A model generated the notes under the pieces. It saw only the letters and a list, made by a program, of their open reading frames with translations. It was not told the origin of the DNA and made no database searches. A stretch of DNA of 64,000 bases from a virus. Taxonomy: Duplodnaviria; Heunggongvirae; Uroviricota; Caudoviricetes. Below, in pieces: positions 1,508 through 59,617 of the stretch. The stretch covers positions 1 through 64,000 of the IMG/VR virus record IMGVR_UViG_2974578479_000001. The stretch is one strand, 5' to 3'. How positions within the stretch are numbered: position 1 is the stretch's first letter; every line of letters begins with the position of its first letter. A program made the translations under genes and the position numbers.

Positions 1508-1690
1508 GTTGGTTATCGAAAGGCGGTAAGGTTCGCCGGATGATAGGAAAGGGTAACAGGGCAAAATAAAGTACTGTTGCAGTGTGAAGCCGAAAGTGCT
1601 CACATAGCCTTATAAAAAGCTTACTAACTGTAAGTGACCTATCTACCGCCTAACGATGTAACAAAAAAAAGTTTCTAAGAAGTTGAAAAA

Positions 1691-1725
1691 AGTACTTGAC
1701 GGATAGAAACGAAACGTAGTAATAT
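1691..1725 (+). promoter_or_regulatory. early promoter cassette (AGTACTTGAC ... TAATAT)
   Basis: aaaaagtacttgacgg, -10 taatat; strong SD plus ATG of 1786 gene downstream. Confidence 0.5.
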
Positions 1726-1785
1726 GTGTTCAAGCCAAACGGCTTACCAAACAAACTAAACTAAACTTTTAAGAGGATTTAAATC

Positions 1786-2448: not shown

Positions 2449-2467
2449 TATCACGGCGTAACGCGAA

Positions 2468-2487
2468 AGGGGGCTAACTAGCCCCCT
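2468..2487 (+). other. stem-loop agggggctaactagccccct (no T-tract)
   Basis: inverted repeat directly after the stop of the 1786 gene. Confidence 0.4.
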
Positions 2488-2593
2488 AAGCCGTTCTAAC
2501 AGTACTGTAATGCAATCGGTTATAGTACTGTTAAAACGTCTTAGAAACGATCCTACGGCGTTCTACAATACCTTTTAAGTGAGAGTAAACGCT

Positions 2594-2863
2594 ATGGAAC
2601 TAAAACCCATTACAGAGTTAATTGATCCTAAGACAAGGATCGCCCGAACGATGAACGCCGTTAGCAGTACTAAACAAGTATATAGCGGCTATCTGGCTTT
2701 TGTTGTAGATGGGAAGATCCTACAACGCAGGATCTATGATATGGCTTATAATAGCCTTTATGATTCCTGTATGTATATAGTACACCAGAAAGTTAACTAT
2801 GCCGTTAATGTATCAGCTAAACCAATTAGCGGGGCGTTTAACGTTGAATCCTTAACTGTATAA
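2594..2863 (+). CDS. hypothetical protein (90 aa)
   Basis: ATG preceded by the ttaagtgagag SD motif shared by many genes in this window. Confidence 0.5.
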   Translation: MELKPITELIDPKTRIARTMNAVSSTKQVYSGYLAFVVDGKILQRRIYDMAYNSLYDSCMYIVHQKVNYAVNVSAKPISGAFNVESLTV

Positions 2864-2887
2864 AATTTAGTTTTATTCATAAATATT

Positions 2888-2920
2888 AAAGCCGCATTGA
2901 TTGGCAATGCGGCTTTTTAT
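2888..2920 (+). terminator. rho-independent terminator (12-bp stem aaagccgcattg/caatgcggcttt plus T-tract)
   Basis: perfect 12-bp inverted repeat then ttttt. Confidence 0.7.
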
Positions 2921-2933
2921 TATGGATTAAATT

Positions 2934-3350
2934 ATGAGATACAAAAAACCTGAACCTGTACATATTCAAGGAAAATGCGTTATAGATGGATGTGACAATC
3001 TACAGGCAGTAGTTAAGAAAAACAAATACGGGGCAAGATGTAGCAAACATCTTAGGGAATCATGGCAATCTAATGATCCTGAAATTTTCAAGTATCTAAG
3101 CATTAAAAGATTATATGGATTAGAAAAAGAAGACTATATAAAACTACTTGAATCACAAGATTATAAGTGTTACATTTGTGGAACTCATCAAGATGATAGC
3201 AGTAGAGAAGTATTATATGTTGACCATGATCACAGTACTAATAAAATCCGTGGGTTATTATGTCATCATTGTAATACTGGTATAGGAAATTTTAAAGATG
3301 ATCCTGAACTCTTACAACGTGCTATAGACTATTTGAAAAAGAATTCATAA
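2934..3350 (+). CDS. HNH homing-type endonuclease
   Basis: CYICG...VDHDHSTNKIRGLLCHHCNTGIGNF matches the HNH/Cys-box pattern; very AT-rich; lies between a terminator and a promoter cassette. Confidence 0.8.
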   Translation: MRYKKPEPVHIQGKCVIDGCDNLQAVVKKNKYGARCSKHLRESWQSNDPEIFKYLSIKRLYGLEKEDYIKLLESQDYKCYICGTHQDDSSREVLYVDHDHSTNKIRGLLCHHCNTGIGNFKDDPELLQRAIDYLKKNS

Positions 3351-3383
3351 AGTACTTGCAATAAGTTTTAAGTACTGTAGAAT
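3351..3383 (+). promoter_or_regulatory. early promoter cassette (AGTACTTGCA-N-AGTACTG-TAGAAT)
   Basis: agtacttgca at 3351-3360; tagaat at 3378-3383; followed by tatcgaaac and an SD. Confidence 0.55.
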
Positions 3384-3415
3384 ATCCTATATCGAAACAA
3401 CACGGAGTAAATGAA

Positions 3416-3640
3416 ATGAGATTAAGTAAACTGTTAGCGGAGTTGTCGAAGGTTGCAGAACTTGCGAAAGTACACGGCAACAATGATCCTGATATTTCTT
3501 TTTGGCATGATGAAATTGAAACAATCGAACATTTAGAAGTATCATTCCCGCAAGATCTGGATGATGCCAGAATACCGACTAAAGTACTATCGGAAACTGA
3601 GAAAGGAAACTTTTCATTTAGATTAGTACTACCAGAATAA
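3416..3640 (+). CDS. hypothetical protein (74 aa)
   Basis: ORF with promoter cassette and SD ggagtaaatgaa. Confidence 0.5.
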   Translation: MRLSKLLAELSKVAELAKVHGNNDPDISFWHDEIETIEHLEVSFPQDLDDARIPTKVLSETEKGNFSFRLVLPE

Positions 3641-3653
3641 TCTTTACAAAAAT

Positions 3654-3672
3654 GGGGTTGACAGCCAGCCCC
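3654..3672 (+). promoter_or_regulatory. PeSL-like stem-loop promoter (ggggttgacagccagcccc)
   Basis: TTGACA -35 sits inside the hairpin stem. Confidence 0.5.
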
Positions 3673-3710
3673 AAAAAATGCAATAATACATACAAGCCAG
3701 AGAAATGGCG

Positions 3711-3800
3711 TAACCCACAGGGTGCGGAGATCCGTCCGTAGAAAATTCAGTACTTAATAGATATATCTCGGCACCCTCTAGGGTATCCGATTTCTCTCGT
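3711..3800. repeat. ~100-bp dispersed repeat, copy 2
   Basis: acccacagggtgcggagatccg ... atatctcggcaccctctagggtatccgatttctctcgt, near-identical to 994-1100. Confidence 0.7.
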
Positions 3801-3875
3801 ATGTAAGTATTATGCCAGTACTGAGAACATAAAGCAAGGGGTAAACGAAAATAAAAATTAAAATTCAAATGAAAA

Positions 3876-3908
3876 AGTACTTGCAATAAGTTTTAAGTAC
3901 TGTATACT
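3876..3908 (+). promoter_or_regulatory. early promoter cassette
   Basis: aaattcaaatgaaaaagtacttgcaataagttttaagtactgtatact. Confidence 0.55.
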
Positions 3909-3941
3909 TACCTTATCGAAACAAATGAAAGGATTTAAGAA

Positions 3942-4334
3942 ATGGAACGTAATGAGCAATTTAGATTAGTTCTTGAAGTACTGGAAAACATGCAAGCTTG
4001 TTTAGATGTTAATGATACATATGTGCGTATCAATGGCAAGAGTTTTAATCTTAATCGACATGCGGGGATCTGCTGGCATGTTCTCGCCTATACTCCTAAT
4101 TGTGATTATTCAGGTATTGGATTAGAATATCTTTCCCCGTTGTTTGTTAGTATGGGCTTACATCCTCATTATCCTGTAGAAATGCAGATCGTTAATGAGT
4201 TAGATCAAGCCCGTTGGATTCATTCAAAAGCAACAGATCAATATAATATCTTGGGCGAAGAAGGAAAGATCCGCCGTAAACTTTTAAAGGATTTGATTCA
4301 GTACTATAAAAAAGAGCTTGCAATTGAATCGTAA
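3942..4334 (+). CDS. hypothetical protein (130 aa)
   Basis: ORF with cassette and SD. Confidence 0.55.
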   Translation: MERNEQFRLVLEVLENMQACLDVNDTYVRINGKSFNLNRHAGICWHVLAYTPNCDYSGIGLEYLSPLFVSMGLHPHYPVEMQIVNELDQARWIHSKATDQYNILGEEGKIRRKLLKDLIQYYKKELAIES

Positions 4335-4373
4335 TACTGTATAATCTTTTATATCGAAACGGGAGATATAAAC

Positions 4374-4829
4374 ATGAATAGCAAACAATTTCAAGATGCA
4401 ACAAGAGAAGCCTTTTTGAAGTACTTCCCAAATGGCTACATTGGTATTTCTAAATTGTCAATGGGTGGCGGTTGTGGTATCTTCTGCGGGTTGATTGGTG
4501 ACATTAATGATGTGGGCGGGAAGATCCGCATGAATGACCCAATGACAGTACGGGCATTCATTCATGATAATTTTTCATTCAATGACGAAACAACTGATTT
4601 AGAAAATGTTGTTATCGAATTCGATGGATCTTGGATCTCAGTACTTCCAGACAATCCACACAATTATTGTCAATCTCACAAGGTGCCTAGTCGCAAGATT
4701 AACGCGGAGCCGTCAAAGGCATTAATTAATCTAGATAAGTACTTTAAACGCTTAAAGGATAGTGTAACCGAACAAGCTGGATTGAATCGTATTATTCAGC
4801 AAGAAAAGATCCCCGCAAAATATCTATAA
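4374..4829 (+). CDS. hypothetical protein (151 aa)
   Basis: ORF with SD gggagatataaac. Confidence 0.55.
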   Translation: MNSKQFQDATREAFLKYFPNGYIGISKLSMGGGCGIFCGLIGDINDVGGKIRMNDPMTVRAFIHDNFSFNDETTDLENVVIEFDGSWISVLPDNPHNYCQSHKVPSRKINAEPSKALINLDKYFKRLKDSVTEQAGLNRIIQQEKIPAKYL

Positions 4830-4904
4830 TATATTGTCAAAAGTACTTGCATTAAAGTAGCGAGTACTTTACAATAAGTTATCGTTAAGTGAGAGGATAA
4901 AGAA

Positions 4905-5039
4905 ATGTCAAAGATTGAAGCTTACAGAGCTGGACTGTATATGTTTACAGTACCGCCAGTAATAACCAATGCATGGAAAGAAGTTGATTGGATCAATTTT
5001 ATTGATTCTAATGGTAAATGGATGGTTCCTGTAGTATAA
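4905..5039 (+). CDS. small hypothetical protein (44 aa)
   Basis: promoter cassette at ~4838 and SD ttaagtgagaggataaagaa; below the 60-aa cutoff of the ORF track. Confidence 0.35.
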   Translation: MSKIEAYRAGLYMFTVPPVITNAWKEVDWINFIDSNGKWMVPVV

Positions 5040-5059
5040 TTTTAATTGAGGGTTTTACT

Positions 5060-5464
5060 ATGTTTTTACATGTACGCGGTTTTACTGGTGGCGGTTTCTG
5101 CTTTATGATTGATGATAAAGCGGTATCAGTACAAGAAGCATTGATCCAGAATGGTGGACGTTTCCACAAGGCAACAATAAACGCATTGAACAGAAAGAAC
5201 CTTTTTAATGAGTCAGATTTAAAAGCCTTTGAAGAACTGGCAGAATCATTACATAAAGGTTTAACTCCTTGCTCCATTCGTCAAATCCTGCGTAATGATT
5301 ACGGGATCGACGTGTTAAAAACTGATTACCTTATGTTATCATCTTCTCAGGTTGAAGATCTTAAAACTGTTTATAAGTACGCACGTTATAAGGTTCCTAC
5401 TGGTTACGTATTGAAACATTCGCCAATGTACTACTTTTACAGGTATTTGAGCAACGTAAAATAA
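5060..5464 (+). CDS. hypothetical protein (134 aa)
   Basis: ATG after SD ttgaggg; in frame with track ORF 5018. Confidence 0.5.
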   Translation: MFLHVRGFTGGGFCFMIDDKAVSVQEALIQNGGRFHKATINALNRKNLFNESDLKAFEELAESLHKGLTPCSIRQILRNDYGIDVLKTDYLMLSSSQVEDLKTVYKYARYKVPTGYVLKHSPMYYFYRYLSNVK

Positions 5465-5474
5465 TTTAAAAAAG

Positions 5475-5494
5475 GGGTTGACTACGGTCAGCCC
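5475..5494 (+). promoter_or_regulatory. PeSL-like stem-loop promoter (gggttgac-tacg-gtcagccc)
   Basis: perfect 8-bp stem containing TTGAC; TATAGT downstream. Confidence 0.5.
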
Positions 5495-5516
5495 TTTGTA
5501 GTACTATAGTATCACT

Positions 5517-5545
5517 CCAGCGAAATGGACTAACCCTATAGGGTG
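5517..5545 (+). repeat. conserved leader element CCAGCGAAATGGACTAACCCTATAGGGTG (contains the 12-bp palindrome ACCCTATAGGGT)
   Basis: recurs at 13245, 14246, 15717, 16274 and 18649, and inverted at 9105. Confidence 0.7.
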
Positions 5546-5588
5546 CAGTACTGTACCTATAATAAAAATAATTAAAATTCAAATGAAA

Positions 5589-5621
5589 AAGTACTTGCAT
5601 TAAGTATTGAGTCATGTATAA
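5589..5621 (+). promoter_or_regulatory. early promoter cassette
   Basis: agtacttgca ... tataat, then tatatcgaaag. Confidence 0.55.
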
Positions 5622-29454: not shown

Positions 29455-30239
29455 TGTTTTTAAAATTCTTTTTAACACTCAATAATTCAACAGGTAGATT
29501 GGTTGGTGGAAATTCAGGAAAAAATAAATTACTAGTTAGTACTCATAACGATCACAAAAAGGAACGGCATGAGACTATAACATTTAACAATGTACTAGAT
29601 TCATTCATGCGTTCCATTGATAATCCTACTCGTTTCGACTTCGGTCTTAATCAGACTAGAGAAATATTAATCAACATTTCTGATGAAGCAATGTTCCAAT
29701 TAGAAACATTATCTGTACCAGAAAATTGTTATTGTACCTATAATTTAAATACTAAGTTAATTGGATTTGGTAACAATATGGCTGAAGCAGAAGAAGCGAC
29801 ACAGGAAGATAATTTTGGATGGGGATACAAATCTAAAAGTTCTAATAATGATTTATTCTTTAATTATTTTGTTGAGATGCCAACAGTACTACCTTATAAA
29901 TTTACTGTACCTGATGTATTTTATGAGCAAGTACTTCAAGAACTGAAACCATATATTGTTAATGAAAAACTTCATATATTCAAAGGATTCAGTGATTTTG
30001 TACTAAAGAGCAGTAAAGAAATAACTGAGTATTTTGATAATTATTATACTGAAGTTTATGATGAATCTAAGATACGTTCATTATCACCATTTAAGAAGTC
30101 CGAGATGCGTAAAGTGATTGAATGGTTCATGGAGGATGATATTGACATTGTAGCCAATAAAGAATCCTTAGCTATTGAGTATGGTACTATAGGTATTTTG
30201 TGTAGAAAAATAATGAATGTTTCGGGTGAAACGTTCTAA
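29454..30239 (+). CDS. hypothetical protein (261 aa)
   Basis: coupled. Confidence 0.5.
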   Translation: MFLKFFLTLNNSTGRLVGGNSGKNKLLVSTHNDHKKERHETITFNNVLDSFMRSIDNPTRFDFGLNQTREILINISDEAMFQLETLSVPENCYCTYNLNTKLIGFGNNMAEAEEATQEDNFGWGYKSKSSNNDLFFNYFVEMPTVLPYKFTVPDVFYEQVLQELKPYIVNEKLHIFKGFSDFVLKSSKEITEYFDNYYTEVYDESKIRSLSPFKKSEMRKVIEWFMEDDIDIVANKESLAIEYGTIGILCRKIMNVSGETF

Positions 30240-30259
30240 AAAAATGTGTTATAATATAT

Positions 30260-30287
30260 AGGACAGCAAGATAAGCTGTCCTTTTTT
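30260..30287 (+). terminator. rho-independent terminator (ggacagc-aagataa-gctgtcc plus tttttt)
   Basis: hairpin plus T-tract. Confidence 0.75.
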
Positions 30288-30289
30288 AA

Positions 30290-30935
30290 TTGAGAAAAAC
30301 TCTGAATGGCCTTGTTAAACAAGGAAGTTTTAACCCTGATCCTATCGAAAAGTAGATGGCAGATGAGTAGATCATTCAGTACGAACAGCAAAAGAAACCC
30401 GTTAGAAGTACGTGCAGTCAATCAAATGCGACATAAGACACTGAGATCACGGCAATGCGGCTGTATAAAGCATGACAGTACTACATAAGTTCATGCCTAG
30501 ATAGACATATAGGATCGCACCTACCTAATGTATAAGGGAGTCAAAAAAATGCGATTGATTTATTACAATATAGATCCGTCCAGAATTTGACAAGTACTGA
30601 AGCTGTTCATGTAGCTTTTGTACTAAGTGTAGTAAGACTACGACCGTTGTATAGAACCGCGATAGGGAGAAACCGGACAACCCGCTTCCGCTCAATTAAG
30701 AAATTCGTGACATGAAATTGCTATGACTATCATCGTCAGTTTTATTCTTCCCTCCCGATGGGGGGATGAAAATGCATCAACAAATCTCGTCAGTACTATT
30801 AAGTAAGTAACTATAAAATGTAAATTCAGAATGAACGTAGTGCTAACGAAGTTCAGAATGAATTTACTGGAACATCGCAAGATGTTCCTTGTATAATGAG
30901 AATCAGCAAAGTACTGATTCTATGTAAAGTGAGAT
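30290..30935 (+). other. ~650-bp ORF-free, hairpin-rich region (candidate ncRNA or decayed locus)
   Basis: no ORF above 60 aa with an SD; hairpins at ~30745 and 30815-30905; promoter TTGTATAAT at ~30890. Confidence 0.35.
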
Positions 30936-30939
30936 GTAA

Positions 30940-31467
30940 ATGAAAGTTGTATACAAATGCAAAAATACGGACACAGTACTTGATTCCGTAGATATGAGTA
31001 CGTTTAATGGTTATATTATTCAAGTGGAGAAAGGAAACAAAATCAGCAATATTACAGAGGTTTATAAGAATGTAGTACTTGCTAAGATTAGTTTACGTCC
31101 CTCCAAAACACCACTCATACACAAAGTTGAATACAATGGTCATATAGAATACCGTTACAATAACAACAATGTTAGTAGTGTTTATTATGAATTTAATGAT
31201 AAAAAATATGGAGAGTACTTAAAATTTGATTTGAATGGAATACTTTTGGATAGGATTTTCTATTACGAAGGAAAGGATGTAACTTCAGATATAATTCAAT
31301 TTCTTGGTTACACTGATGATTTATCTTCATTTAAGAATTATGAATTTAAAGAAGATGAACTGTTTAACATCATGATGAAGTACGGTTTTTATTTTAGATT
31401 TCGCAATGAATCGGAACGGGATAGTTCTGAATTTGACCGTATCACAGAGTACTGTCAACACATATAA
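30940..31467 (+). CDS. hypothetical protein (175 aa)
   Basis: SD aagtgagatgtaa. Confidence 0.5.
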   Translation: MKVVYKCKNTDTVLDSVDMSTFNGYIIQVEKGNKISNITEVYKNVVLAKISLRPSKTPLIHKVEYNGHIEYRYNNNNVSSVYYEFNDKKYGEYLKFDLNGILLDRIFYYEGKDVTSDIIQFLGYTDDLSSFKNYEFKEDELFNIMMKYGFYFRFRNESERDSSEFDRITEYCQHI

Positions 31468-32021: not shown

Positions 32022-32573
32022 ATGAATAAAACTTGTATAATGATGTATGGGAGAATGAATCCAGTACATTTAGGTCATGGCTTATTATTTGATGTATGTT
32101 TAAGTACCATGAATCAAATACCAAATTCTGAAATACGAATTTACATGAGCACTACTGTAGATAGTATAAGTAATCCTATTCCTCATTGTTTTAAAATGAA
32201 TATGGTTCAAGATTACTTTCCAAGTATTTTTCCTTATATGCAACAGGCACAAGAAGGAACATTATTTGGTACATTAGAAAAGATAGATACTGAGTTTGAT
32301 AATTTAGTACTAGTATGTGGTGAAGATAGATATGAACATTTTAATAATGTACTTCACAAATATAATGGTACTTTATATGAATTTGATGAATTATCTGTTC
32401 GCACTTATGGTGGTCCTCGTGAGTATAATAAGTACAGTGCTACAAATTTGAGACAGGCTATACGAGATAATAATTACAAGGAATTTTGTACCTTCTTGCC
32501 TAATAGGGGTGAAGCTATGAATGAGAAGTACTACGAAATTATTTCTCATTTTATGGGAGTAAACAACTATTGA
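32022..32573 (+). CDS. HxGH nucleotidyltransferase, NMNAT/cytidylyltransferase-like
   Basis: GRMNPVHLGH matches the GRFQPxHxGH NMNAT signature; 183 aa. Confidence 0.55.
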   Translation: MNKTCIMMYGRMNPVHLGHGLLFDVCLSTMNQIPNSEIRIYMSTTVDSISNPIPHCFKMNMVQDYFPSIFPYMQQAQEGTLFGTLEKIDTEFDNLVLVCGEDRYEHFNNVLHKYNGTLYEFDELSVRTYGGPREYNKYSATNLRQAIRDNNYKEFCTFLPNRGEAMNEKYYEIISHFMGVNNY

Positions 32574-32854
32574 TGCTTTATAAATTGAATCAAATGTTTT
32601 GGGATGAGAATGAAAGTACTGGTTATAGGCATGTTAGTGTTGAATATAATGGTCGTGTACTAATGGCTGTAACCGCCCACAACGTGTCAAAGGTGTGGTC
32701 ATCTAGGATTATTCCAATGGGATTTTCATTTGAACTGGATGAGGTAGAAGCGTTTTCAGGACTATTTGAAGTACTTCCTTCGTTGATGAAATTCATGTGT
32801 ACTGAATCATTAAGTTCAGAAGAAATGCAGAATTTTCTCTTGACAATCCAGTAA
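32570..32854 (+). CDS. hypothetical protein (94 aa)
   Basis: ATGA coupling. Confidence 0.45.
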   Translation: MMLYKLNQMFWDENESTGYRHVSVEYNGRVLMAVTAHNVSKVWSSRIIPMGFSFELDEVEAFSGLFEVLPSLMKFMCTESLSSEEMQNFLLTIQ

Positions 32855-32900
32855 AAGTATTATACAATCTATGAACAACAAAAATTAAGAAGGTAAATGA

Positions 32901-33482
32901 ATGAGCAGTTTAATGACCAAAACTTTTGCTAAGTACTTGCGTTTAGGAATCACACCTAGACCAGTTCGTGGTAATTGGAAAGATGGCGATTACATGTATA
33001 GCATCTATCATGGTGATGTTCAGTACGCCATTGATGATACTGGAGACTATGAGATTGACCACGATGTTGATTATATCTTAGATTGTTTACAATCTAGAGC
33101 AACAATTATTGATCGTAATCACAAATTGATTAGTGAAATCTATGAGCATCTAATGGGTGTACTAGACACTGATATTTGGGTACGAGTTGGTGTAGGTATG
33201 CAGCTTAATGTTGTTTTTGGTTCAGTGGATGGAGAAATTGCTACGTTCATGATGGACTTTGAAGATATGGAAGCATTCAATAAGTTAGTTGAAGAAATCA
33301 AAGCTCAAATCTTGGAAGAAACAAATAAAGAACCGATAGTTGAACAATCAGACTATTTTACTTTAATCTTACATAACCGTGTGGATATTAAATTGTTCAA
33401 AGGTTACTATAACCCAAAAGTTCGTATCCATTTTATGGATGAGTTCGAAGATGATGACGGAGATGATGATGAAGAAGACTGA
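32901..33482 (+). CDS. hypothetical protein with acidic C-terminal tail (193 aa)
   Basis: SD aagaaggtaaatga. Confidence 0.5.
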   Translation: MSSLMTKTFAKYLRLGITPRPVRGNWKDGDYMYSIYHGDVQYAIDDTGDYEIDHDVDYILDCLQSRATIIDRNHKLISEIYEHLMGVLDTDIWVRVGVGMQLNVVFGSVDGEIATFMMDFEDMEAFNKLVEEIKAQILEETNKEPIVEQSDYFTLILHNRVDIKLFKGYYNPKVRIHFMDEFEDDDGDDDEED

Positions 33483-34167
33483 TTACACAAAATTACGTAC
33501 TAAGATCCTTGGAATTATTGAGGGTCTAACGATGTTTGATAGTAAGTACTTTAACGTTCGCCGTGCCTTAGTGTATGCAGAACATGTACATTGCAATCAA
33601 CGCCGAGATGGTACTCCTGAATTTTCACATCAACTTGAAATGCTTTCTCTAGCATTGAGTTTGCATAACTCTCTATTGAAACCATATGAAGTTTATATGG
33701 CTATTATCATTCATGATACAATTGAGGATTATCCACATACTCAACCAGAACTGGCTCAGATGTTTCCTGATGTAGTTAATTATAGTCGAATCTTATCTAA
33801 ATTTAATGATTCAGATTTAAGCACGTACTATAATTATTTTGCACAAATTGCAGCATGTGAAGTGTGTTCTGTTGTAAAATTGATTGACCGTATTCATAAT
33901 CTTAGTACTGCACCTGGTGTATTCAGCACTGCAAAGATTGGAGAGTACTGTGACGAGGTAGATATGTATTTCCTTAGTATGATGCATATTGCAAAAAGTA
34001 ATTTCAATCAACGAGAAGTATATGAAGTACTTAAATTTATTCTTCAAAATGAAGTCCGTACTATTCGTGCATTTTTACGTTTAGCGGAAGCAAAGGAAGA
34101 AGAAGAACGTAAGACAGTCAGTGCATCTGAATTAGTCCAACGTCTAAAAAGGAATGAACGAAAATGA
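33469..34167 (+). CDS. RelA/SpoT-family HD hydrolase (small alarmone hydrolase, Mesh1-like)
   Basis: H..H......G.P...H, IIHDTIED, VVKLIDRIHNL match the SpoT (p)ppGpp-hydrolase HD motifs; start is one of three ATGs at 33463-33469. Confidence 0.7.
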   Translation: MKKTDYTKLRTKILGIIEGLTMFDSKYFNVRRALVYAEHVHCNQRRDGTPEFSHQLEMLSLALSLHNSLLKPYEVYMAIIIHDTIEDYPHTQPELAQMFPDVVNYSRILSKFNDSDLSTYYNYFAQIAACEVCSVVKLIDRIHNLSTAPGVFSTAKIGEYCDEVDMYFLSMMHIAKSNFNQREVYEVLKFILQNEVRTIRAFLRLAEAKEEEERKTVSASELVQRLKRNERK

Positions 34168-35219
34168 GTTTTGAAAAACAACGTAATATTATTACACGTA
34201 CACTAGGCGAAGATAATATTCGCCTTTTAACTACCACTAAAGCTATTTTAGCAGGTGGTGCAATAACTTCTATCTTTAGTGGGAAAGACATTAATGATTT
34301 TGACATTTACTTTCGTAGAATAGAAGATTTAATTACATTTATTCGTAATGCTTATTGTGATGAAGATAATCTATCTGATGAAGAATTTGTAGATTTAGCA
34401 CCATTTTCATTAATATGTACAAGCTATACTAATCGTAGTATTACTTTTAATGTTGATGAATTAAAGATTCAATTAATTCATTTTGATTATTTTGATTCTA
34501 TTCAGAAAATTTTTGATAGTTATGATTTCCATCATAACATGGGAGCATATGATTTCAGTACTTCAGAGTTTGTTCTGGATGAGCATTTCTTAACAGATAT
34601 TGCAGAACGTAGACTTACTTTTAATGCAGGTACTAAGTACCCAATTATGAGTACTTTGCGTGTTTCCAAATATGTTGATCGTGGATATAAGATTTCTAAG
34701 AAGGAAATGTTCAAGATTGCACTAGCAGTTGCTAAACTAAACATTGAATCATGGGAAGAATTAGAAGATCAGCTAAGTGGTTTTTATGGAATTGATGTTC
34801 GTAAAATGTTTGATAAGACGCAAGAATTTAGTATTGATACTGCTATTGAAATGCTAGATTTAGTTGAAGAATTACCAGAGCAAAGTACTGATATTCATCC
34901 TACATTGAAAGATCTTCTATTTAATATTGAAGGTTCTCCGATTAAAGATCAACGTATCTTTTTCAAACAAGTACAAGATAACGGGATAAATTTTGTGTCT
35001 TTACATAGTGGAACTGAAACATTTGGTACAGATCAAATAACCGCATGTGATGGGATGGCAGTATATTGTACTTTTGAAGAAGCGAACAGTACATATTTCT
35101 TCAGAAAAAATTTCCATATTGCTATTTTGCAATTAGTGGAAGGTGAAGTTGAAATGAAGGGTGATAGTCTAGTACTTACTGGTGCAGTAAAACTTTTGGG
35201 AACAAAGGAGCCAACTTAA
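34164..35219 (+). CDS. nucleotidyltransferase, CCA-adding/poly(A)-polymerase-like head motif
   Basis: LAGGAITSIFSGKDINDFDIYF is GGAx(n)DxD as in class II tRNA nucleotidyltransferases; 351 aa. Confidence 0.45.
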   Translation: MSFEKQRNIITRTLGEDNIRLLTTTKAILAGGAITSIFSGKDINDFDIYFRRIEDLITFIRNAYCDEDNLSDEEFVDLAPFSLICTSYTNRSITFNVDELKIQLIHFDYFDSIQKIFDSYDFHHNMGAYDFSTSEFVLDEHFLTDIAERRLTFNAGTKYPIMSTLRVSKYVDRGYKISKKEMFKIALAVAKLNIESWEELEDQLSGFYGIDVRKMFDKTQEFSIDTAIEMLDLVEELPEQSTDIHPTLKDLLFNIEGSPIKDQRIFFKQVQDNGINFVSLHSGTETFGTDQITACDGMAVYCTFEEANSTYFFRKNFHIAILQLVEGEVEMKGDSLVLTGAVKLLGTKEPT

Positions 35220-36163: not shown

Positions 36164-36195
36164 AATGCCCTGATAGTATCGGGGCATTATTTTAT
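36164..36195 (+). terminator. terminator-like hairpin aatgccc...ggggcatt plus T-rich tail
   Basis: inverted repeat plus tattttat. Confidence 0.5.
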
Positions 36196-36561: not shown

Positions 36562-37722
36562 ATGACTAATAAAACCAGTACAGAAATCATGTTTGATGAT
36601 CTGATGACCTTGACTGCAAAAAACGATGCGTTTATGTGGAAAGACTTCACCTCTGTAGGTGGTGGTACTTTTCGTATCTTCTCTTATCGTCTTGCGAGTT
36701 ATTCTGACTTTTTAGAGCGAAATGCTTTAGAATGTCGTGGCAGTATGTTCCTAATTAATGAAGATTGTACATATAATCGTGTTGCATCTCGGACTCCACA
36801 AAAGTTCTTTAATGCATATGAAAATCCGTTCACTATGTATGATAAAAGTATTCTTAGTAATGAGATTGCGATTGTTATGGATAAGCTTGACGGTTCTATT
36901 ATTAGTACTTTCATGGATGTAGATTATATTGTCCGTACTAAATCACATGCATCTTTAAATTCTGATCATGCTTTAAACAGTACTGCATTGCTTCATAAAG
37001 ATAAAGAATTTTACGAAGAAGTATATCAGGCAGAAATTTGCGGATATACGGTTAATATGGAGTATACATCTCCAGAGTTTCGTATTGTTCTTCCATATCA
37101 AGAAGATGGTTTAACAGTATTAAATTTACGTCATCGCCATGATGGAACGTTGTTAATCGGTAAAGAATTGGAAGCTACATTCCCATTACTTTATGCCAGT
37201 TCTGTATTTGCGAAGTACGGTGAAATTGACAGTACTTTTCCAATGCGTGAAACATTGTATGAAAGTATTGAAGCAGTTCGCTCTATGACTGACATTGAGG
37301 GATATGTATTGATCCTTAAAGATGGTCGTATGTGCAAGATTAAAACTGATTGGTACAGTGCATTACATTTTACTAAGGATAGTATTAATGTTGATTCTCG
37401 TCTGTACGAAGCAGTAATTAATGGTGGTTCTGACGATTTAAAACAAATGTTCGGTACTGATTTGTACAGTATGAAAAAGATTGAAAAAATGGAACAGCTT
37501 GTTTTTTCTTGCTATAATAAGCTAGTACATGATGTTGAAACGTTTGTAGAAGCGAACAAACACATGGAACGAAAAGACTATGCTTTAAAAGTTCAGGCAG
37601 AATTACCAAATGAGCTTGGAAAACCAGGTCTAGCATTTAGTCTTTATAATTCTAAGCCCGTAGATTATAAAGGTACGATGTTAAAATACATGAAGGAAGT
37701 CCTTAAAGATTTCGAAGTTTAA
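36562..37722 (+). CDS. rnlA: RNA ligase 1 (T4 RnlA/gp63-like tRNA repair ligase)
   Basis: TFRIFSYRLASYSDF..ALECRG, KFFN..ENPFTM, active-site K in MDKLDGSI, IEGYVLILKDGRMCKIKTDWY align with T4 Rnl1 as recalled. Confidence 0.9.
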   Translation: MTNKTSTEIMFDDLMTLTAKNDAFMWKDFTSVGGGTFRIFSYRLASYSDFLERNALECRGSMFLINEDCTYNRVASRTPQKFFNAYENPFTMYDKSILSNEIAIVMDKLDGSIISTFMDVDYIVRTKSHASLNSDHALNSTALLHKDKEFYEEVYQAEICGYTVNMEYTSPEFRIVLPYQEDGLTVLNLRHRHDGTLLIGKELEATFPLLYASSVFAKYGEIDSTFPMRETLYESIEAVRSMTDIEGYVLILKDGRMCKIKTDWYSALHFTKDSINVDSRLYEAVINGGSDDLKQMFGTDLYSMKKIEKMEQLVFSCYNKLVHDVETFVEANKHMERKDYALKVQAELPNELGKPGLAFSLYNSKPVDYKGTMLKYMKEVLKDFEV

Positions 37723-38216: not shown

Positions 38217-38441
38217 ATGAAAGTAGAAGTAGAACATAGTATTATTCAAGACATGTCGGTAATTAAATTTTTATCTTTAAAAGATTATCACCGAGCACTT
38301 GACTTTTTAGATACGAATGGGTTATCATGGACACCTCTTAAATATAGTTCTCGCTTAGACACCGCTAGTATACGTGTCAGTGAGGGCGTATTAAACATCA
38401 TTACAAATAAATTTGGAATAGGAAAATCATGCCAACATTAA
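38217..38441 (+). CDS. hypothetical protein (74 aa)
   Basis: SD aaaggagatttcc. Confidence 0.45.
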   Translation: MKVEVEHSIIQDMSVIKFLSLKDYHRALDFLDTNGLSWTPLKYSSRLDTASIRVSEGVLNIITNKFGIGKSCQH

Positions 38442-39355
38442 CAGTAACAGTAGGACTTCCAGGATGTGGTAAAACCACTTGGGCGAACGAGCAAGTACGT
38501 ACCGCACGGTCTAAGACTGTGAACGTAAATCTTGATGACCTTCGCCAAACAATGGCTGGTTCCCATAGTAACTACAAGTTCCGTAAAGACAACGAACAGT
38601 ACGTGCAAGACGCACAGTACAGTGCAGCGGAACATGCAGCAGCTAATAACTGGAACATCATTGTATCCGACACGAACTTGAATCCTACAGTTCGTGGAAA
38701 GTGGAAAGAATTTGCCAAAAAGCATAATTACACTTATAAAGAACAAAGCTTCTTAGAAGAATTCAAGAAAGATAAAACTTTCTCTCATGATTTCTTTGCA
38801 GTTAAAGGTTTTGTTAAACAGTGTAAAGACCGCAACCTTATGCGTGAGAAATCTGTACCAGAAGATGTAATTGATGGTATGGCTGAAAAGTACTTCTATA
38901 GTGCAATGAAGGTTCAGACACCAACTTTACAAGATTTGGAAGAAGCGATCATTGTAGATATTGATGGTACTCTTGCACATATGGACGGTAAACGTGGCCC
39001 ATACGAAGAAAATAAAGTACTTGTAGATTCACCAGATCCTGAAGTAATTTTGTCAGTACTGGCAGAAAAGAACTTTCTCGGTCGTACAGTGATCATCATG
39101 AGTGGTCGTCATGAAACCTGTAAAGAAGATACTGAAGCATGGTTGGATAAGTATGCTATTCCATACGATCATATCTTCATGCGTGGTGCTGAAGATAGCC
39201 GCTCGGACGACATTGTGAAGTACGAACTTTACATGGAAAATGTACACAACAAATTCAAAGTTGTTAAAGTCTTTGATGATCGCGATCAGGTGGTCGTAAT
39301 GTGGCGGCGTTTGTTGGGTCTTAAAGTTTATCAGGTTGGTTTTGGTAACTTCTAA
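38429..39355 (+). CDS. pseT: polynucleotide 5'-kinase/3'-phosphatase (T4 PseT-like)
   Basis: P-loop GLPGCGKTTWA; phosphatase DIDGTLAHMDGKRGPY; C-terminal DDRDQVVVMWRRLLGLKVYQVGFGNF as in T4 Pnk. Confidence 0.9.
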   Translation: MPTLTVTVGLPGCGKTTWANEQVRTARSKTVNVNLDDLRQTMAGSHSNYKFRKDNEQYVQDAQYSAAEHAAANNWNIIVSDTNLNPTVRGKWKEFAKKHNYTYKEQSFLEEFKKDKTFSHDFFAVKGFVKQCKDRNLMREKSVPEDVIDGMAEKYFYSAMKVQTPTLQDLEEAIIVDIDGTLAHMDGKRGPYEENKVLVDSPDPEVILSVLAEKNFLGRTVIIMSGRHETCKEDTEAWLDKYAIPYDHIFMRGAEDSRSDDIVKYELYMENVHNKFKVVKVFDDRDQVVVMWRRLLGLKVYQVGFGNF

Positions 39356-53757: not shown

Positions 53758-54825
53758 ATGAAAAATGAAAAAGTATATGTATATATTGGTCGCTTCCAAA
53801 TGGCACATAAAGGCCATGAGGAAACAATTAAACATGCACTAGAAAATGCAGACCGTTTGGTAATTCTTGTTGGTTCGTCTGACCTTGCACGTGATCCTAA
53901 AAATCCGTTCAGTTTCACAGAACGTCAACAGGTACTGGATGCTATGAGTACTCGTTTAGCACAAGAAGAATGGGCTAAAGGGCGTTCGGTTAAGATTAAC
54001 ATCTTACCAATCCACGATTACGTTTATAACAACAGCAAATGGTTAAAAGAAGTACATGAACAGGTTAAATCTGTAACTGTCAGTTCTGATATTACTATTA
54101 CTGGTTGTCAGAAAGAAGCTGACGAAAGTACTTTCTATTTGAACTTCTTTCCACAATGGAAACAGGATTTCATTGAAGAACTTAAAGTTGATGAAGCAAC
54201 TATCAACAGTACTGAGATTCGTAATCAATTCTTCAGTACTAAACAAGTTCCAACGATTCTTCCAGAAGAAACTCAAGAGTTCCTAGAGAAGTTCATGCAC
54301 ACTAAACCAATGGTGTTTGATAATTTGATTGGTGAATTTAACTTCATTAATCGTTATCGTTCTGAAATGATCGAAAAGTTACCATTTAAAACTATCCCAT
54401 TTATTACTGGTGATGCTTTGGTAATTTGTGCTGGTCATGTTCTATTGGTTAAACGCCGCACATTCCCAGGAAAAGGTCTATATGCACTTCCTGGTGGATT
54501 CTTCGATTCTGAACAAGATGGTGATCAAGTAGATGCCGCGATTCGTGAATTAAAAGAAGAAACCAAAATTGATGTTCCAGTAAAAGTACTTTATGGTTCT
54601 ATCCGTGAAAGTATGGAATTTGGTGATAAAAACCGTTCTCTACGCTGGCGTATCATTACTAAGTGTGCGTACATCCAACTTCAGGACAATACTTTACCAA
54701 AAGTAAAAGGTGCTGATGATGCTGAAAAAGCATTCTGGATGCCACTTGGTGATTTGGTTAACAACCGTGATAAATTCTTTGAAGACCATTTGAGTATCAT
54801 TGATACTTTCTTAGGTATTCTGTAA
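53758..54825 (+). CDS. natV: bifunctional NMN adenylyltransferase / Nudix hydrolase (NatV-like)
   Basis: IGRFQMAHKGH (HxGH NMNAT) at the N-terminus; Nudix box GGFFDSEQDGDQVDAAIRELKEETKI at the C-terminus. Confidence 0.8.
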   Translation: MKNEKVYVYIGRFQMAHKGHEETIKHALENADRLVILVGSSDLARDPKNPFSFTERQQVLDAMSTRLAQEEWAKGRSVKINILPIHDYVYNNSKWLKEVHEQVKSVTVSSDITITGCQKEADESTFYLNFFPQWKQDFIEELKVDEATINSTEIRNQFFSTKQVPTILPEETQEFLEKFMHTKPMVFDNLIGEFNFINRYRSEMIEKLPFKTIPFITGDALVICAGHVLLVKRRTFPGKGLYALPGGFFDSEQDGDQVDAAIRELKEETKIDVPVKVLYGSIRESMEFGDKNRSLRWRIITKCAYIQLQDNTLPKVKGADDAEKAFWMPLGDLVNNRDKFFEDHLSIIDTFLGIL

Positions 54826-55445: not shown

Positions 55446-56924
55446 ATGAAAAACTTAAATGTAAACTTTATTCTTAATGTTGATTCTTACAAAACTGGTC
55501 ACGGTTTTATGATGAAAGATGGCGTTGTAGCTCTCGAATCAAACATCATTGCCCGTAAACCATCCAAATTCACTACACATGTTGTGATGATGGGTATTCA
55601 GTACTACCTTCAAGAGTACTTGGATATTGTTATCACTGTAGATGACATTGACGAAGCAGAACATGAAACAAACCAACGTGGTGATGATTTTGATCGCGGC
55701 TTTTGGGAGCATATTGTAGAAGTGCATGGTGGTAAAATTCCATTGCATATTCGTGCTATTCCAGAAGGTACATTGGTTCCTGTTGGTTGTCCTTTAGTAC
55801 GTTCTTTCAGTACTGATGAACGTGTAGCAGTTATTGCAAGCTACATTGAAACTCAGTTACAACGTGCAATTTGGTTCCCAACAACTGTTGCAAGTAATGC
55901 TCGTAGCATTAAAGAATTTTTAGCAGATACTATGGAACGTCATGCTGGTCATCGTTTTGTAGATTATCATCTTCATAACTTCGGGGATCGTGGTGCATCA
56001 AGTTTCGAATCAGCAATTCTTGCTGGTATGTCCCATTCAACGGTATTCAGTGGTTCTGATTGTTTATCTGCTAACCGTTACATCAAACATTACTATAATA
56101 CTGACAAAGCATATTTGACCAGTGTTACTGCAAGTGAACATAGTGCAACTTGTTCTAACTCTGATGCAGACAAACGTGATGACTTCAATATGGCAGTCAA
56201 AATGGTTCGTTTGTGGGAGAAGAAAGTTGACAAGTACATTGCAAATGGTTCTGTTGGTGTACCACCAATTGTTTCAGTAGTAATCGATACTTACGATGCG
56301 TACCGTTTCGTTCGTGATTATATCGGTACTCGGTTAAAAGCGACAATTGAAGAAATCGGGAAACGTTGCCCTGGTGCTAAACTTGTTATGCGTCCAGATA
56401 GTGGCGACCCAACAACTATGCCAATCGAAATCATCGAACTATTGATGGAAAAATTTGGTAGTACTGTAAATGCACAGGGATTCAAAGTACTTCCAGCATT
56501 TATCGGTGTTATCCAAGGTGATGGCATCAATGAAACCAGTATTCGTCAGATTGTTTCTAATCTAGATGACAAAAAACTTTCTATTGAAAACCTTGTTTTC
56601 GGTATGGGTGGTAAACTTGTTCATCCTGAAGCTGGTCGTGATACTTATTCTTTCGCAATGAAAGGATCTGCACAGCAACTTGAAGATGGTACTTGGGAAG
56701 ATTTATTCAAAGACCCAATTACCGATGTTGGTAAACGTTCTCTCCGTGGTCGTGTAACGACTTATGAATGCACCAATACTCACAAAATCATTGCTGAGCG
56801 AATTGAATTACAAGAAGTCAATCCATTCTTGAAAGATATGATGGTTGATATGTACATTGACGGTGTTATCATGAATCTTAGTACTTTTGATGAAGTACGG
56901 GAACGTGCTAATAAAGGTCTATAA
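55446..56924 (+). CDS. nadV: nicotinamide phosphoribosyltransferase (NadV/NAMPT-like)
   Basis: N-terminal NVDSYKTGH motif; 492 aa, typical of NAMPT. Confidence 0.8.
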   Translation: MKNLNVNFILNVDSYKTGHGFMMKDGVVALESNIIARKPSKFTTHVVMMGIQYYLQEYLDIVITVDDIDEAEHETNQRGDDFDRGFWEHIVEVHGGKIPLHIRAIPEGTLVPVGCPLVRSFSTDERVAVIASYIETQLQRAIWFPTTVASNARSIKEFLADTMERHAGHRFVDYHLHNFGDRGASSFESAILAGMSHSTVFSGSDCLSANRYIKHYYNTDKAYLTSVTASEHSATCSNSDADKRDDFNMAVKMVRLWEKKVDKYIANGSVGVPPIVSVVIDTYDAYRFVRDYIGTRLKATIEEIGKRCPGAKLVMRPDSGDPTTMPIEIIELLMEKFGSTVNAQGFKVLPAFIGVIQGDGINETSIRQIVSNLDDKKLSIENLVFGMGGKLVHPEAGRDTYSFAMKGSAQQLEDGTWEDLFKDPITDVGKRSLRGRVTTYECTNTHKIIAERIELQEVNPFLKDMMVDMYIDGVIMNLSTFDEVRERANKGL

Positions 56925-57226: not shown

Positions 57227-57673
57227 ATGGCTGGAAAAGGATTTGTGGGTCTATCACTGGATATTGACCAAGCTAAAGAAATTCAAAGAATATTTAAAAT
57301 TGCTGGTGTAGATTGCTTGACACCATCAAAATTTCATGTTACTGTTATGTACGATGAAGACGAGCCGGAAATTGATGTTCTTCCGAATGACAAAAAATAT
57401 TCTGCAACTATTACTGGCGTTGAACGTCTTGGTAAAGTAGGTTCAAAATATGAAGCTATTGCACTAATATTGGAATCATTTGACATTAGTCAACGGCATA
57501 AAGAACTAAAAAACGCTGGATTTAAACATAAATTTCCAGATTTTAAATGTCATATGAGTGTACTTTATCAACCATCAGATACCGATTTGGATTTGATTGA
57601 ATTGATATATAAACTTGGGGTATTACCAGAAGAATTGACATTTGGTAATGAACATTTAGGTAATACAAAATAA
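57227..57673 (+). CDS. hypothetical protein (148 aa)
   Basis: SD taagggagtataatg. Confidence 0.5.
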   Translation: MAGKGFVGLSLDIDQAKEIQRIFKIAGVDCLTPSKFHVTVMYDEDEPEIDVLPNDKKYSATITGVERLGKVGSKYEAIALILESFDISQRHKELKNAGFKHKFPDFKCHMSVLYQPSDTDLDLIELIYKLGVLPEELTFGNEHLGNTK

Positions 57674-57907: not shown

Positions 57908-58699
57908 ATGGAACTCGAAAGCTTTCTTTTAAATCGTGGACAACCACGCCTAGTATTTGCAACTGGTGCTGGATTATCAAAAGAATCTGGTATTAATACT
58001 TTCCGTGACGCTGACGATGAAGGCTTGTGGGATCAGTACAATGTGGATGAGATTTGTAATATTGCAACTTTCCATATTAATTATCAAAAAGTACATCATT
58101 TTTATAATATGCTTCGTGTAAATTTAGCAAATGTTGAACCAAATATTGGTCACCATATAATTGCTGAATACCAACAACTATATGGTCATGACCGTGTATT
58201 ACATATTACTGCTAATGTTGATGATTTGGCAGAACGTGCTGGTGGTACAGCTATGCATGTTCATGGTAAACTGACTGAAGTGGTAGAACCATATAGTACC
58301 AATAGTGAGGATTATGAAGTACTGACCGTTGGTTATGAGAATTTCACACCAACACCAGGAATTATTTCTAAACCAAATATTGTAATGTTTGGAGAAGGTT
58401 ACTGGTTCACCGATGGTGTACGTAAACCAATTTATGATGATCTATATCGAGTACTTGATAATTTAACGTCACAAGATACCGTTATTATTATTGGATCATC
58501 TGATACTGTAATTCCTTGGTCTGTGTATGTTGGTTTAGCTACACCTGCTGAGACACTTAATGTGAATCCAGAAGCCCATGAAAAAGATGATTACTTTACT
58601 TATAATATGTACCAACCAATAAGTAATTCAGTAACAATGATCGATCAGTACGTTCATTCCCGTATGGATCGTCCTGATTATAGCAATGAAGAATACTAA
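57908..58699 (+). CDS. SIR2-family (sirtuin-like) NAD-dependent enzyme lacking the zinc-ribbon cysteines
   Basis: GAGLSKESGINTFRDADDEGLW; TANVDDLAERAGG; catalytic H in MHVHGKL; VMFGE; no CxxC...CxxC between the HG and FGE motifs. Confidence 0.75.
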   Translation: MELESFLLNRGQPRLVFATGAGLSKESGINTFRDADDEGLWDQYNVDEICNIATFHINYQKVHHFYNMLRVNLANVEPNIGHHIIAEYQQLYGHDRVLHITANVDDLAERAGGTAMHVHGKLTEVVEPYSTNSEDYEVLTVGYENFTPTPGIISKPNIVMFGEGYWFTDGVRKPIYDDLYRVLDNLTSQDTVIIIGSSDTVIPWSVYVGLATPAETLNVNPEAHEKDDYFTYNMYQPISNSVTMIDQYVHSRMDRPDYSNEEY

Positions 58700-58708: not shown

Positions 58709-59617
58709 ATGATAGGTTATGAAGAAATTGAATTTGGTACACGCTCAGATCGTTTTGACTGTGTATTCGTGTGGATTTACGCACGTAATTGCACCCCGTA
58801 TACTGGCTACCCTTATAATGACATTCCAAATGTTAGTCTAGTACTAACAGAATTGCGGTATGACGGTTTATTTGGAGCAGTGGGTGGAGCAGTAGAAGCA
58901 GATGATTTGAATCTAGAAGTTGCAGTACATCGTGAAGCAATGGAAGAAATTGCATATGATTTGCCTATTGAACGTTTAGAACCTCTGGCAACATATAAAA
59001 ATAAAATGAGTGGTTCTCATATTCATAGTTTCTCATTAGAAGTAACTTATGAAGAACTGCTTGAAATACGTAAGAACGCATACAACGGCGAGCATTTTAA
59101 TGCTGAGAATGCAGGTATTAATTTACTTCATATTTGTCGGTACTTAAAAGGTGGAAAAGTCGAATGTGGTTGGAATACAATTCTTGAACAGAATTTTGTT
59201 AGTACTTCTAAATTAGAACTAATGAAACTTGCTCGTACTAAAAATCTTGTCATTAATTATGTTGATGACAGTAAAGCACATACGGGTTCTTACAAGATGT
59301 TTATTGATGATCTTCGTGATGTTGAACAGTACTATCCAAATGAAGAATTTGTTGTGGTACGTACATATCAAGAAGCTGTTCAATATGTCAAAGAACATGG
59401 TATGCCATCTTTTGTGTCATTTGATCATGATTTGGGTGATACTGTTAACAAAGATGAAGAAACAGGATATACATTTGCTAAGTACTTAGTGGATTATATG
59501 ATGGATAATCGGATTGCAGTACCTTTCGAATATCATGTTCATAGTGCAAATCCAGTTGGTGCCATGAATATTATGTCCTATTTGGAAAACGCATTTAAAT
59601 TTATTCGGAGTTTATAA
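58709..59617 (+). CDS. Nudix hydrolase with uncharacterised C-terminal domain (FDHDLGD motif)
   Basis: Nudix-box core GGAVEADDLNLEVAVHREAMEEIAYDL; C-terminal ~150 aa unassigned. Confidence 0.6.
   Translation: MIGYEEIEFGTRSDRFDCVFVWIYARNCTPYTGYPYNDIPNVSLVLTELRYDGLFGAVGGAVEADDLNLEVAVHREAMEEIAYDLPIERLEPLATYKNKMSGSHIHSFSLEVTYEELLEIRKNAYNGEHFNAENAGINLLHICRYLKGGKVECGWNTILEQNFVSTSKLELMKLARTKNLVINYVDDSKAHTGSYKMFIDDLRDVEQYYPNEEFVVVRTYQEAVQYVKEHGMPSFVSFDHDLGDTVNKDEETGYTFAKYLVDYMMDNRIAVPFEYHVHSANPVGAMNIMSYLENAFKFIRSL

Follow-up and report, generated by a model that had tools for sequence, protein, structure and literature searches.

Small alarmone hydrolases (SAHs) have been found in many phages and prophages, and the stand-alone SAHs of the Salmonella phages PVP-SE1 (PbcSpo) and SSU5 (PaSpo) were reported to neutralise the toxic small alarmone synthetases (toxSAS) CapRel, PhRel, PhRel2, FaRel and FaRel2, together with the proposal that SAHs let incoming phages get around defence mediated by alarmones (Jimmy et al. 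2020, PMC7229694). Enzymes of the toxSAS type pyrophosphorylate tRNA at its CCA end, and SAHs (ATfaRel, MESH1) restore aminoacylation (Kurata et al. 2021); the enzyme of SSU5 is said to take the 3'-pyrophosphate off tRNA (Sci Adv 2024) and is routinely used to tame CapRel(SJ46). CapRel systems of Enterobacter and Klebsiella defend against phages. For jumbo phages, an alarmone phosphodiesterase of the HD superfamily has been described and predicted to act against stringent-response signalling and related immune signals (Iyer et al. 2021, Viruses 13:63, PMC7824862), and a 2025 genome paper annotated a SAH in Pseudomonas phage Adele. Here, we analysed bases 1–64,000 (hereafter the window) of Serratia phage BF (KY630187 / NC_041917; record and window numbering are identical), a 357,154 bp myovirus of the genus Eneladusvirus and a Rak2-like jumbo phage, in which the gene gp067 (33469–34167, + strand) is highly likely to encode a stand-alone hydrolase of the RelA/SpoT homologue (RSH) type. 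The CapRel backgrounds Enterobacter, Klebsiella and Salmonella phage correspond to the host genera of phages related to BF.

A first-pass annotation made from the DNA letters had placed a phage-encoded SpoT/Mesh1-type SAH at 33469–34167, and these coordinates match exactly the RefSeq CDS FDH34_gp067 (YP_009599563.1; 232 aa), which is annotated as "hypothetical protein". The mechanical open reading frame is longer and opens with a GTG at 33379, which is not the likely start. The ATG at 33469 is favoured because a Shine-Dalgarno-like GGAG (33459–33462, + strand, within the 3' end of gp066) lies 6 nt before it, because homologues share the N-terminus M-x-K-T, and because this start produces a 14-nt overlap with the gp066 stop, in the usual phage manner. 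Comparison with the orthologues of Yen9-04, CBB and K64-1 revealed purifying selection on the gene, with ratios of non-synonymous to synonymous substitution (dN/dS) of 0.18–0.23.

The HD motifs quoted in the first-pass annotation are all present in the gp067 translation, namely IIHDTIED (aa 80–87), VVKLIDRIHNL (aa 135–145) and an "H..H" stretch that corresponds to HCNQRRDGTPEFSH (aa 41–54). The Pfam HD_4 search suggested there gave a divided answer, as BF gp067 alone remains under the gathering score while 20 of 28 family members match HD_4 (E<0.01; best 2e-12); several relatives also carry a precomputed PF13328 assignment. Given the sub-threshold Pfam scores of the single sequence, we therefore relied on a family profile, on the predicted structure and on residue conservation, all three of which were derived from one alignment of 28 diverse relatives. 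A search with this profile against PDB sequences returned 22 matches, all of them RSH hydrolase domains or SAHs (E 5e-15 to 1e-4), headed by A. baumannii SpoT (5e-15), B. subtilis Rel (1e-14), P. aeruginosa SAH (2e-14) and T. thermophilus Rel (6e-14). Mesh1 was matched at E 2e-7 to 6e-6 with 30–34 bits, compared with 55–59 bits for the SpoT/Rel domains and the P. aeruginosa SAH; of the label "SpoT/Mesh1-type SAH", the SpoT/SAH part is thus borne out and "Mesh1-type" is imprecise. The single sequence gave a similar ranking in a phmmer search of PDB sequences, in which the P. aeruginosa SAH came first (1e-7), followed by SpoT, Rel and Mesh1, and it also matched the NCBIfam model spoT_relA, in its N-terminal 120 positions only (E 2e-6). 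In PHROGs, gp067 was assigned to phrog_15275 ("unknown function"), with a weaker match to "metal-dependent phosphohydrolase". No other Pfam, NCBIfam or PHROG domain was detected in the library scans, which leaves the hydrolase domain as the only one, without any synthetase or regulatory domain.

AlphaFold2, run on the same alignment, returned an all-helical model of 11 helices (mean per-residue confidence pLDDT 93; predicted template-modelling score pTM 0.87). The top PDB matches of this model in Foldseek were those of the P. aeruginosa SAH (6Z3N/6YVC), with target-normalised template-modelling scores of 0.77–0.79, and further matches comprised C. glutamicum RelH, full-length SpoT, TdActApo2 and a Leptospira SAH. 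Every one of the 11 matches at E<=0.001 was a SAH or SpoT, with more Rel, SpoT and SAH structures just below the cut-off. As all 22 profile matches in the PDB are RSH hydrolase domains or SAHs and the best structural matches are SAHs, the motif match of gp067 goes well beyond chance.

Residue conservation points in the same direction. Invariant among the 28 family members are H41, R45, D47, G48, H54, H82, D83, E86, D87, K137, D140, R141, H143 and N144, and the positions H41, H54, H82–D83, E86–D87, K137, D140, N144 and E163 are likewise unchanged in a comparison with the P. aeruginosa SAH, SpoT, Rel and the SSU5 SAH. In the gene, the codons of these key positions lie on the + strand at 33589–33591 (H41), 33628–33630 (H54), 33712–33717 (H82–D83), 33724–33729 (E86–D87), 33886–33888 (D140) and 33898–33900 (N144). 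The putative metal tetrad H54, H82, D83 and D140 aligns with the corresponding residues of the P. aeruginosa SAH, A. baumannii SpoT, B. subtilis Rel and the SSU5 SAH; in RelSeq this tetrad is H53, H77, D78 and D144. The E86–D87 dyad (HDxxED) and the D140-R141-x-H143-N144 block are invariant in the family, and the dyad, D140 and N144 are also kept in the reference enzymes, among which the P. aeruginosa SAH was crystallised as an E-to-Q mutant of the HDxxED dyad (6Z3O). From what is known of RelSeq and Mesh1, the invariant set of gp067 includes the His/His-Asp/Asp metal tetrad, the ED dyad and the asparagine of the DRxHN motif. An HD match is found in the family, and the metal-binding His and Asp residues, whose conservation the first-pass annotation had named as a point of refutation if absent, are invariant.

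We collected 92 relatives of gp067, nearly all on contigs of jumbo-phage size, and some of these carry the JGI label "(p)ppGpp synthase/HD superfamily hydrolase". An exhaustive HMMER search of 1.84 billion representative sequences placed 345 clusters in the family at E<1e-30; among the best 150 of these 345, members are mostly 200–230 aa long and align end to end, which argues for a sizeable family of stand-alone enzymes rather than fragments of long RSH proteins. A tblastn search with gp067 found 36 phage records, all of jumbo phages, in two of which (K64-1 and Muenster) the homologue is called "phosphohydrolase"; SSU5 and PVP-SE1 were not among them. The same type of search with the P. aeruginosa SAH returned 146 phage records, BF included.

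On the basis of profile homology, predicted fold, invariant metal and catalytic residues, and a single-domain size without synthetase, we consider it highly likely that gp067 belongs to the class of stand-alone RSH-type hydrolases, i.e. that it is a SAH. The predicted enzyme is very probably a Mn2+-dependent 3'-pyrophosphohydrolase, in which H54, H82, D83 and D140 would hold the divalent metal (Mn2+ in characterised relatives), E86–D87 would serve as the catalytic dyad, and the 3'-pyrophosphate would be cleaved off the ribose. Candidate substrates are (p)ppGpp, (p)ppApp and the tRNA 3'-CCA end as pyrophosphorylated by toxins of the toxSAS/CapRel type. A host-type promoter probably drives early production of gp067 along with that of a Gad2-like anti-Gabija protein, and gp067 may both erase the stringent-response signal and reverse the abortive-infection chemistry of toxSAS-type toxins, so that the infected cell would keep translating and replicating. 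We assign a probability of roughly 0.7 to this full reading, in which a catalytically competent SAH acts early in alarmone erasure and toxSAS reversal and of which we infer the substrates, metal, timing and benefit, drawing for substrates and counter-defence benefit on class behaviour and context. Suppression of the stringent response and reversal of toxSAS action are mutually compatible and inseparable in silico.

The proposed early timing follows from the arrangement of the surrounding genes. A candidate sigma-70-like promoter (32840–32868, + strand; TTGACA, 17-nt spacer, TACAAT; 11 of 12 consensus positions) precedes gp066 and is the strongest such match of the region in a consensus scan, with a -35 element that is conserved in Yen9-04 and CBB and a -10 element that is partly so. 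The putative first gene of the unit, gp066 (32901–33482, + strand; PHROG 15575, no known domain), overlaps the start of the SAH gene and is syntenic with it in all Rak2-like phages checked (K64-1, Munch, Yen9-04 and CBB). The C-terminal tail of gp066 is strongly acidic (DEFEDDDGDDDEED). Downstream of gp070, a hairpin with U-run resembling an intrinsic terminator (36164–36188, + strand) marks the putative end of the unit. Yen9-04, CBB and Munch have a hairpin with U-run at the corresponding position, and in Munch its stem differs in sequence. From the promoter-like site upstream, the terminator-like hairpin downstream and their conservation, we infer a putative early transcription unit gp066-gp067-gp068-gp069-gp070.

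The next gene of this unit, gp068 (34164–35219, + strand), is annotated as hypothetical, and its ATG overlaps the stop codon of the SAH gene by 4 nt (ATGA). Comparison by tblastn led to the annotated Gad2 (Gabija anti-defence 2, a predicted nucleotidyltransferase) of SPbetaL6, to which gp068 is 37% identical over 271 aligned columns in BLASTP (gp068 residues 1–265; E 5e-55), while its C-terminal third is unaligned. The GG...DxD nucleotidyltransferase motif is conserved (AGGAITS...ND(F/V)DIYFR). By these alignments, gp068 is a homologue of the validated anti-Gabija protein Gad2 of SPbeta-like phages; Gad2 itself was described by Yirmiya et al. (bioRxiv 2023.05.01.538930). An identity of gp068 as a toxSAS or a CCA-adding enzyme was considered and rejected, as it gave no PDB or Pfam match and the Gad2 homology explains the gene. 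An obligate SAH-gp068 module was rejected as well: the Gad2-like gene occurs at the locus in BF and in two of the four relatives checked (Yen9-04 and CBB), is absent beside the SAH gene in K64-1 and Munch, and is separated from it in CBB by the gene of a small membrane protein. Gad2-like genes occur in 217 phage records versus 36 for gp067 homologues. The block Dam-cytidylyltransferase-gp065-gp066-SAH-gp070-Rnl1 is kept in K64-1, Munch, Yen9-04 and CBB, and in the unrelated jumbo phages Phosso and RsoM2USA a SAH homologue stands amid different neighbours. In the stretch of the Sinorhizobium phage Phosso that was examined (469 kb genome; positions 787–5603), the homologue (32% identity) follows a threonyl-tRNA synthetase gene at a distance of 2.3 kb and precedes an ADP-ribosyl glycohydrolase gene by a few kb; the former neighbour is of interest because the toxSAS FaRel2 targets tRNA-Thr and tRNA-Gly.

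The same hydrolase might serve host takeover or metabolism only, lowering (p)ppGpp and thereby keeping rRNA, tRNA and nucleotide synthesis available for a 357-kb genome, with no role against toxSAS. Such a restriction would suit the position of the SAH gene in the core block that every Rak2-like phage checked retains, in contrast to the accessory Gad2-like gene, and it would also suit the R45-R46 motif and DRxHN block, which resemble those of the long SpoT/Rel hydrolases that act on (p)ppGpp and that are the best profile matches; a DksA/TraR-type zinc-finger protein in BF further suggests an interest in the axis of ppGpp and RNA polymerase. On the other hand, the adjoining genes are counter-defence genes, and all SAHs tested so far against toxSAS, human MESH1 included, neutralised them, which makes the two roles hard to separate. 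Both readings are moreover compatible with each other; a role confined to (p)ppGpp appears possible but less likely.

Similarly tentative is the idea that gp067 represents a distinct, unclassified SAH lineage fixed in Rak2-like jumbo phages, which would mainly repair RNA and not turn over alarmones, by removing the 3'-pyrophosphate from tRNA CCA ends modified by toxins of the CapRel/FaRel2 type. The enzyme would then form the third arm of an unusually complete tRNA-maintenance kit, whose remaining components are Rnl1 and Pnkp, directed against anticodon nucleases, as well as a CCA-adding enzyme, a peptidyl-tRNA hydrolase (Pth) and about 30 tRNAs, and it would be co-expressed with the Gad2-type enzyme in one early counter-defence operon.

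An RSH-fold hydrolase acting on a non-alarmone substrate, e.g. NADPH or a different nucleotide or signalling molecule phosphorylated at the 3' or 2' position, seems quite unlikely. Metabolic promiscuity is a feature of bacterial SAHs, MESH1 has been reported to dephosphorylate NADPH, and NAD-related genes are plentiful in the window (nicotinamide phosphoribosyltransferase, an NMN adenylyltransferase-Nudix fusion and Sir2); these genes, however, lie 20 kb off in other transcription units, and the Mesh1 matches of the family are weaker (E ~1e-7 to 1e-6) than those to SpoT, Rel and SAH (1e-15 to 1e-14). Still more improbable is that gp067 serves as the immunity or antitoxin partner in a type IV toxSAS-SAH pair carried by the phage, like FaRel-ATfaRel, and protects the infected cell against the phage's own synthetase, which would be employed to exclude superinfecting phages. 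Some toxSAS do have SAH antitoxins, toxSAS are carried by phages and prophages, and the overlapping downstream gene gp068 does encode a protein of nucleotidyltransferase fold; yet this protein is a Gad2 homologue with no RelA_SpoT match and is not an RSH synthetase, its gene is missing beside the SAH in K64-1 and Munch, and the product labels of the BF record, taken as such, name no RelA/SpoT or GTP pyrophosphokinase. Finally, a degenerate HD-fold protein that acts by binding, comparable to the pseudo-hydrolase domain of RelA, would agree with the low Pfam scores of BF gp067 and is scarcely credible in view of the strong purifying selection and of metal and catalytic residues that are invariant in 28 diverse members and match those of active enzymes.

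Several observations weigh against the preferred reading of gp067 as an early SAH that erases alarmones and reverses toxSAS action. The Pfam scores of the protein alone are 22.4 bits for HD_4 (PF13328; cut-off 27.2), with a match that spans the first 67 of 156 model positions, and 19.7 for HD (cut-off 22). Its similarity to the SSU5 enzyme SSU5_099 is remote (22% identity over 90 aa, E 0.024, hhalign probability 74%), so that a close kinship between the two was rejected and the transfer of toxSAS neutralisation to gp067 rests on class behaviour; substrate preference, too, is not readable from the gp067 sequence. A literature search on gp067 in Rak2-like phages yielded generic statements only, with no biochemistry or genetics on gp067 or close relatives. 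As to timing, sigma-70-like matches are not enriched in the region, with 51 found versus 57 expected.

Beyond the unit itself, the neighbourhood of RNA-repair and nucleotidyltransferase genes described by the first-pass annotation is real: it comprises a cytidylyltransferase-like gene (32022–32573), the nucleotidyltransferase-fold gene gp068 (34164–35219), a T4-type RNA ligase 1 (Rnl1; 36562–37722, + strand) in the next transcription unit and a T4-type polynucleotide kinase/3'-phosphatase (Pnkp; 38429–39355, + strand). Its view of this area as an island that deals with nucleotide- and tRNA-directed immunity also seems reasonable, given the Gad2 homologue, Rnl1/Pnkp, an Acb1-like gene and the NAD+ salvage genes. 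For the cytidylyltransferase-like gp064 (32022–32573, + strand), the deposited RefSeq start at 32055 is probably too far downstream: translation from the ATG at 32022 adds an N-terminal strand before the PVHLGH nucleotide-binding motif, the Pfam match begins at residue 8 of this long form, and its length agrees with the 183 aa annotated in Yen9-04. Further downstream, gp110 (57227–57673, + strand) is annotated as "RNA ligase" and scores 56.4 bits against a cut-off of 27 with Pfam Acb1, the family of anti-CBASS 2H phosphoesterases; it is thus probably a counter-defence enzyme that degrades cyclic nucleotides rather than a ligase. An NMN adenylyltransferase-Nudix fusion (NMNAT-Nudix; 53758–54825, + strand), annotated as "cytidyltransferase", adjoins nicotinamide phosphoribosyltransferase (Nampt; 55446–56924, + strand), and we take the two enzymes to form an NAD+ salvage pair like those reported to counteract defence by NAD+ depletion. 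Sir2 (57908–58699, + strand) and a Nudt16-like Nudix protein fused to a cREC_REC domain (58709–59617, + strand) follow.

Outside the window, BF carries about 30 tRNAs (269–319 kb), a CCA-adding enzyme (106350–107462), genes for a peptidyl-tRNA hydrolase, a Thg1-like protein and a tyrosyl-tRNA synthetase, a second RNA ligase (99795–101054), a nucleotidyltransferase of the RlaP family (87898–89142) and the DksA/TraR-type zinc-finger protein mentioned above (333937–334197). The phage appears to invest heavily in the upkeep of tRNA and translation and in the ppGpp axis.

A separate observation concerns an unannotated element of ~600–700 nt at 30231–30938 (+ strand), in the 700-nt gap between gp061 and gp062 (30240–30940). 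Its conservation exceeds that of the genes on either side (column identity averages 85% with Yen9-04 and CBB), and its insertions and deletions relative to these two phages are not multiples of three. By blastn it was found in 62 Rak2-like jumbo-phage records, mostly without an annotated feature and at 3–5 places per genome. In a search with nhmmer, the whole BF genome was found to hold five copies, every one on the + strand and within a separate unannotated gap (30231–30881, 92958–93599, 174420–175136, 258729–259417 and 335270–335830), with a spacing of 63–84 kb. Upstream of all four copies inspected, an extended -10-like TGnTATAAT is present. Consensus folding with RNAalifold of four BF paralogues and four orthologues, evaluated against 500 shuffles and slid controls, revealed 71 pairs, including a long-range helix (30358–30372/30725–30737); 94.2% of cells were paired, compared with 81.3 +/- 1.0 in the shuffles, and 34 pairs had changed on both sides, compared with 15.8 +/- 2.5 in the shuffles and 4–15 in the slid controls. 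Not one of the 500 shuffles attained the observed value on any measure, and many changes from G-C to G-U are consistent with the + strand. Three copies tested against Rfam 15 gave no credible match, and Rfam and tRNA scans of the 64-kb window gave no matches. A 14-base core pattern found 120 loci in IMG/VR and proved too unspecific, as only 13 of the 120 were true members by nhmmer; these 13 lie mostly on contigs of ~354–378 kb, the others being fragments. The element has the appearance of a large, multi-copy structured RNA, not previously described, of ~550–650 nt and could alternatively be an origin-like element dependent on a transcript, a thought that stems from the even spacing of the copies. 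This candidate RNA, which is supported by covariation, is probably the greatest novelty of the window and seems newer than what was found for gp067.

For gp067, the present work replaces a hypothetical protein with a specific and testable enzymatic function, conserved across a lineage of enterobacterial jumbo phages with genomes of 340–380 kb. Several of these phages are in use, or have been proposed, as therapeutic or biocontrol agents against Klebsiella, Erwinia, Salmonella and E. coli. If the enzyme is active, these phages are predicted to be intrinsically resistant to abortive infection of the toxSAS/CapRel type and able to blunt the stringent response. The analysis also marks ~29–60 kb of BF as a counter-defence region, whose unknown genes are good candidates for anti-defence functions.

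Among described enzymes, the P. aeruginosa SAH (PA0431; 6YVC, 6Z3N, 6Z3O) is a stand-alone protein of ~200 aa with the same HD, ED and D..N residues as gp067, although the two are only ~22–26% identical. It carries T/L at the positions of R45-R46 and "DRITN" in place of "DRIHN", it lacks the extra conserved N-terminal helix of gp067 (aa 3–23) and the C-terminal helical extension of the BF clade, and it is a chromosomal bacterial enzyme, whereas gp067 is encoded by a phage. The long RSH proteins SpoT and Rel (7QPR, 7OIW, 6S2T, 1VJ7) are the best profile matches (E 5e-15 to 8e-12) and share the motifs H-x2-Q-x-R-[RK]-x-G-x-P-x3-H, HDxxED and KLxDRxHN; gp067, at 232 aa against ~700 aa, is devoid of their synthetase, TGS, helical, ZFD and ACT/RRM domains. 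Mesh1/HDDC3 (3NQW, 3NR1, 5VXA) agrees with gp067 in its RSH hydrolase fold and its catalytic residues and neutralises toxSAS in E. coli, but is clearly more distant from gp067 in the profile comparison, and its reported physiological substrate is NADPH. The idea put forward for jumbo phages in PMC7824862, with BBI90576.1 as an example, is the same as the one proposed here. With SSU5_099 (PaSpo), gp067 shares the standing of a stand-alone phage RSH hydrolase as well as H41, H54, HD, ED, K137, D140 and N144, and the role suggested for it, neutralisation of toxSAS, is the one demonstrated for the SSU5 and PVP-SE1 SAHs. Since the similarity to SSU5_099 is marginal and SSU5 and PVP-SE1 are missing from the 36 tblastn records, gp067 probably belongs to a SAH subfamily other than that of the tested phage enzymes, a placement for which SSU5 was compared by sequence and PVP-SE1 only by its absence from the tblastn results. 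As phage SAHs and their action against toxSAS have already been published (2020–2021), gp067 brings no new mechanism; the gain lies in the annotation and in a new, divergent member of an established phage enzyme class.

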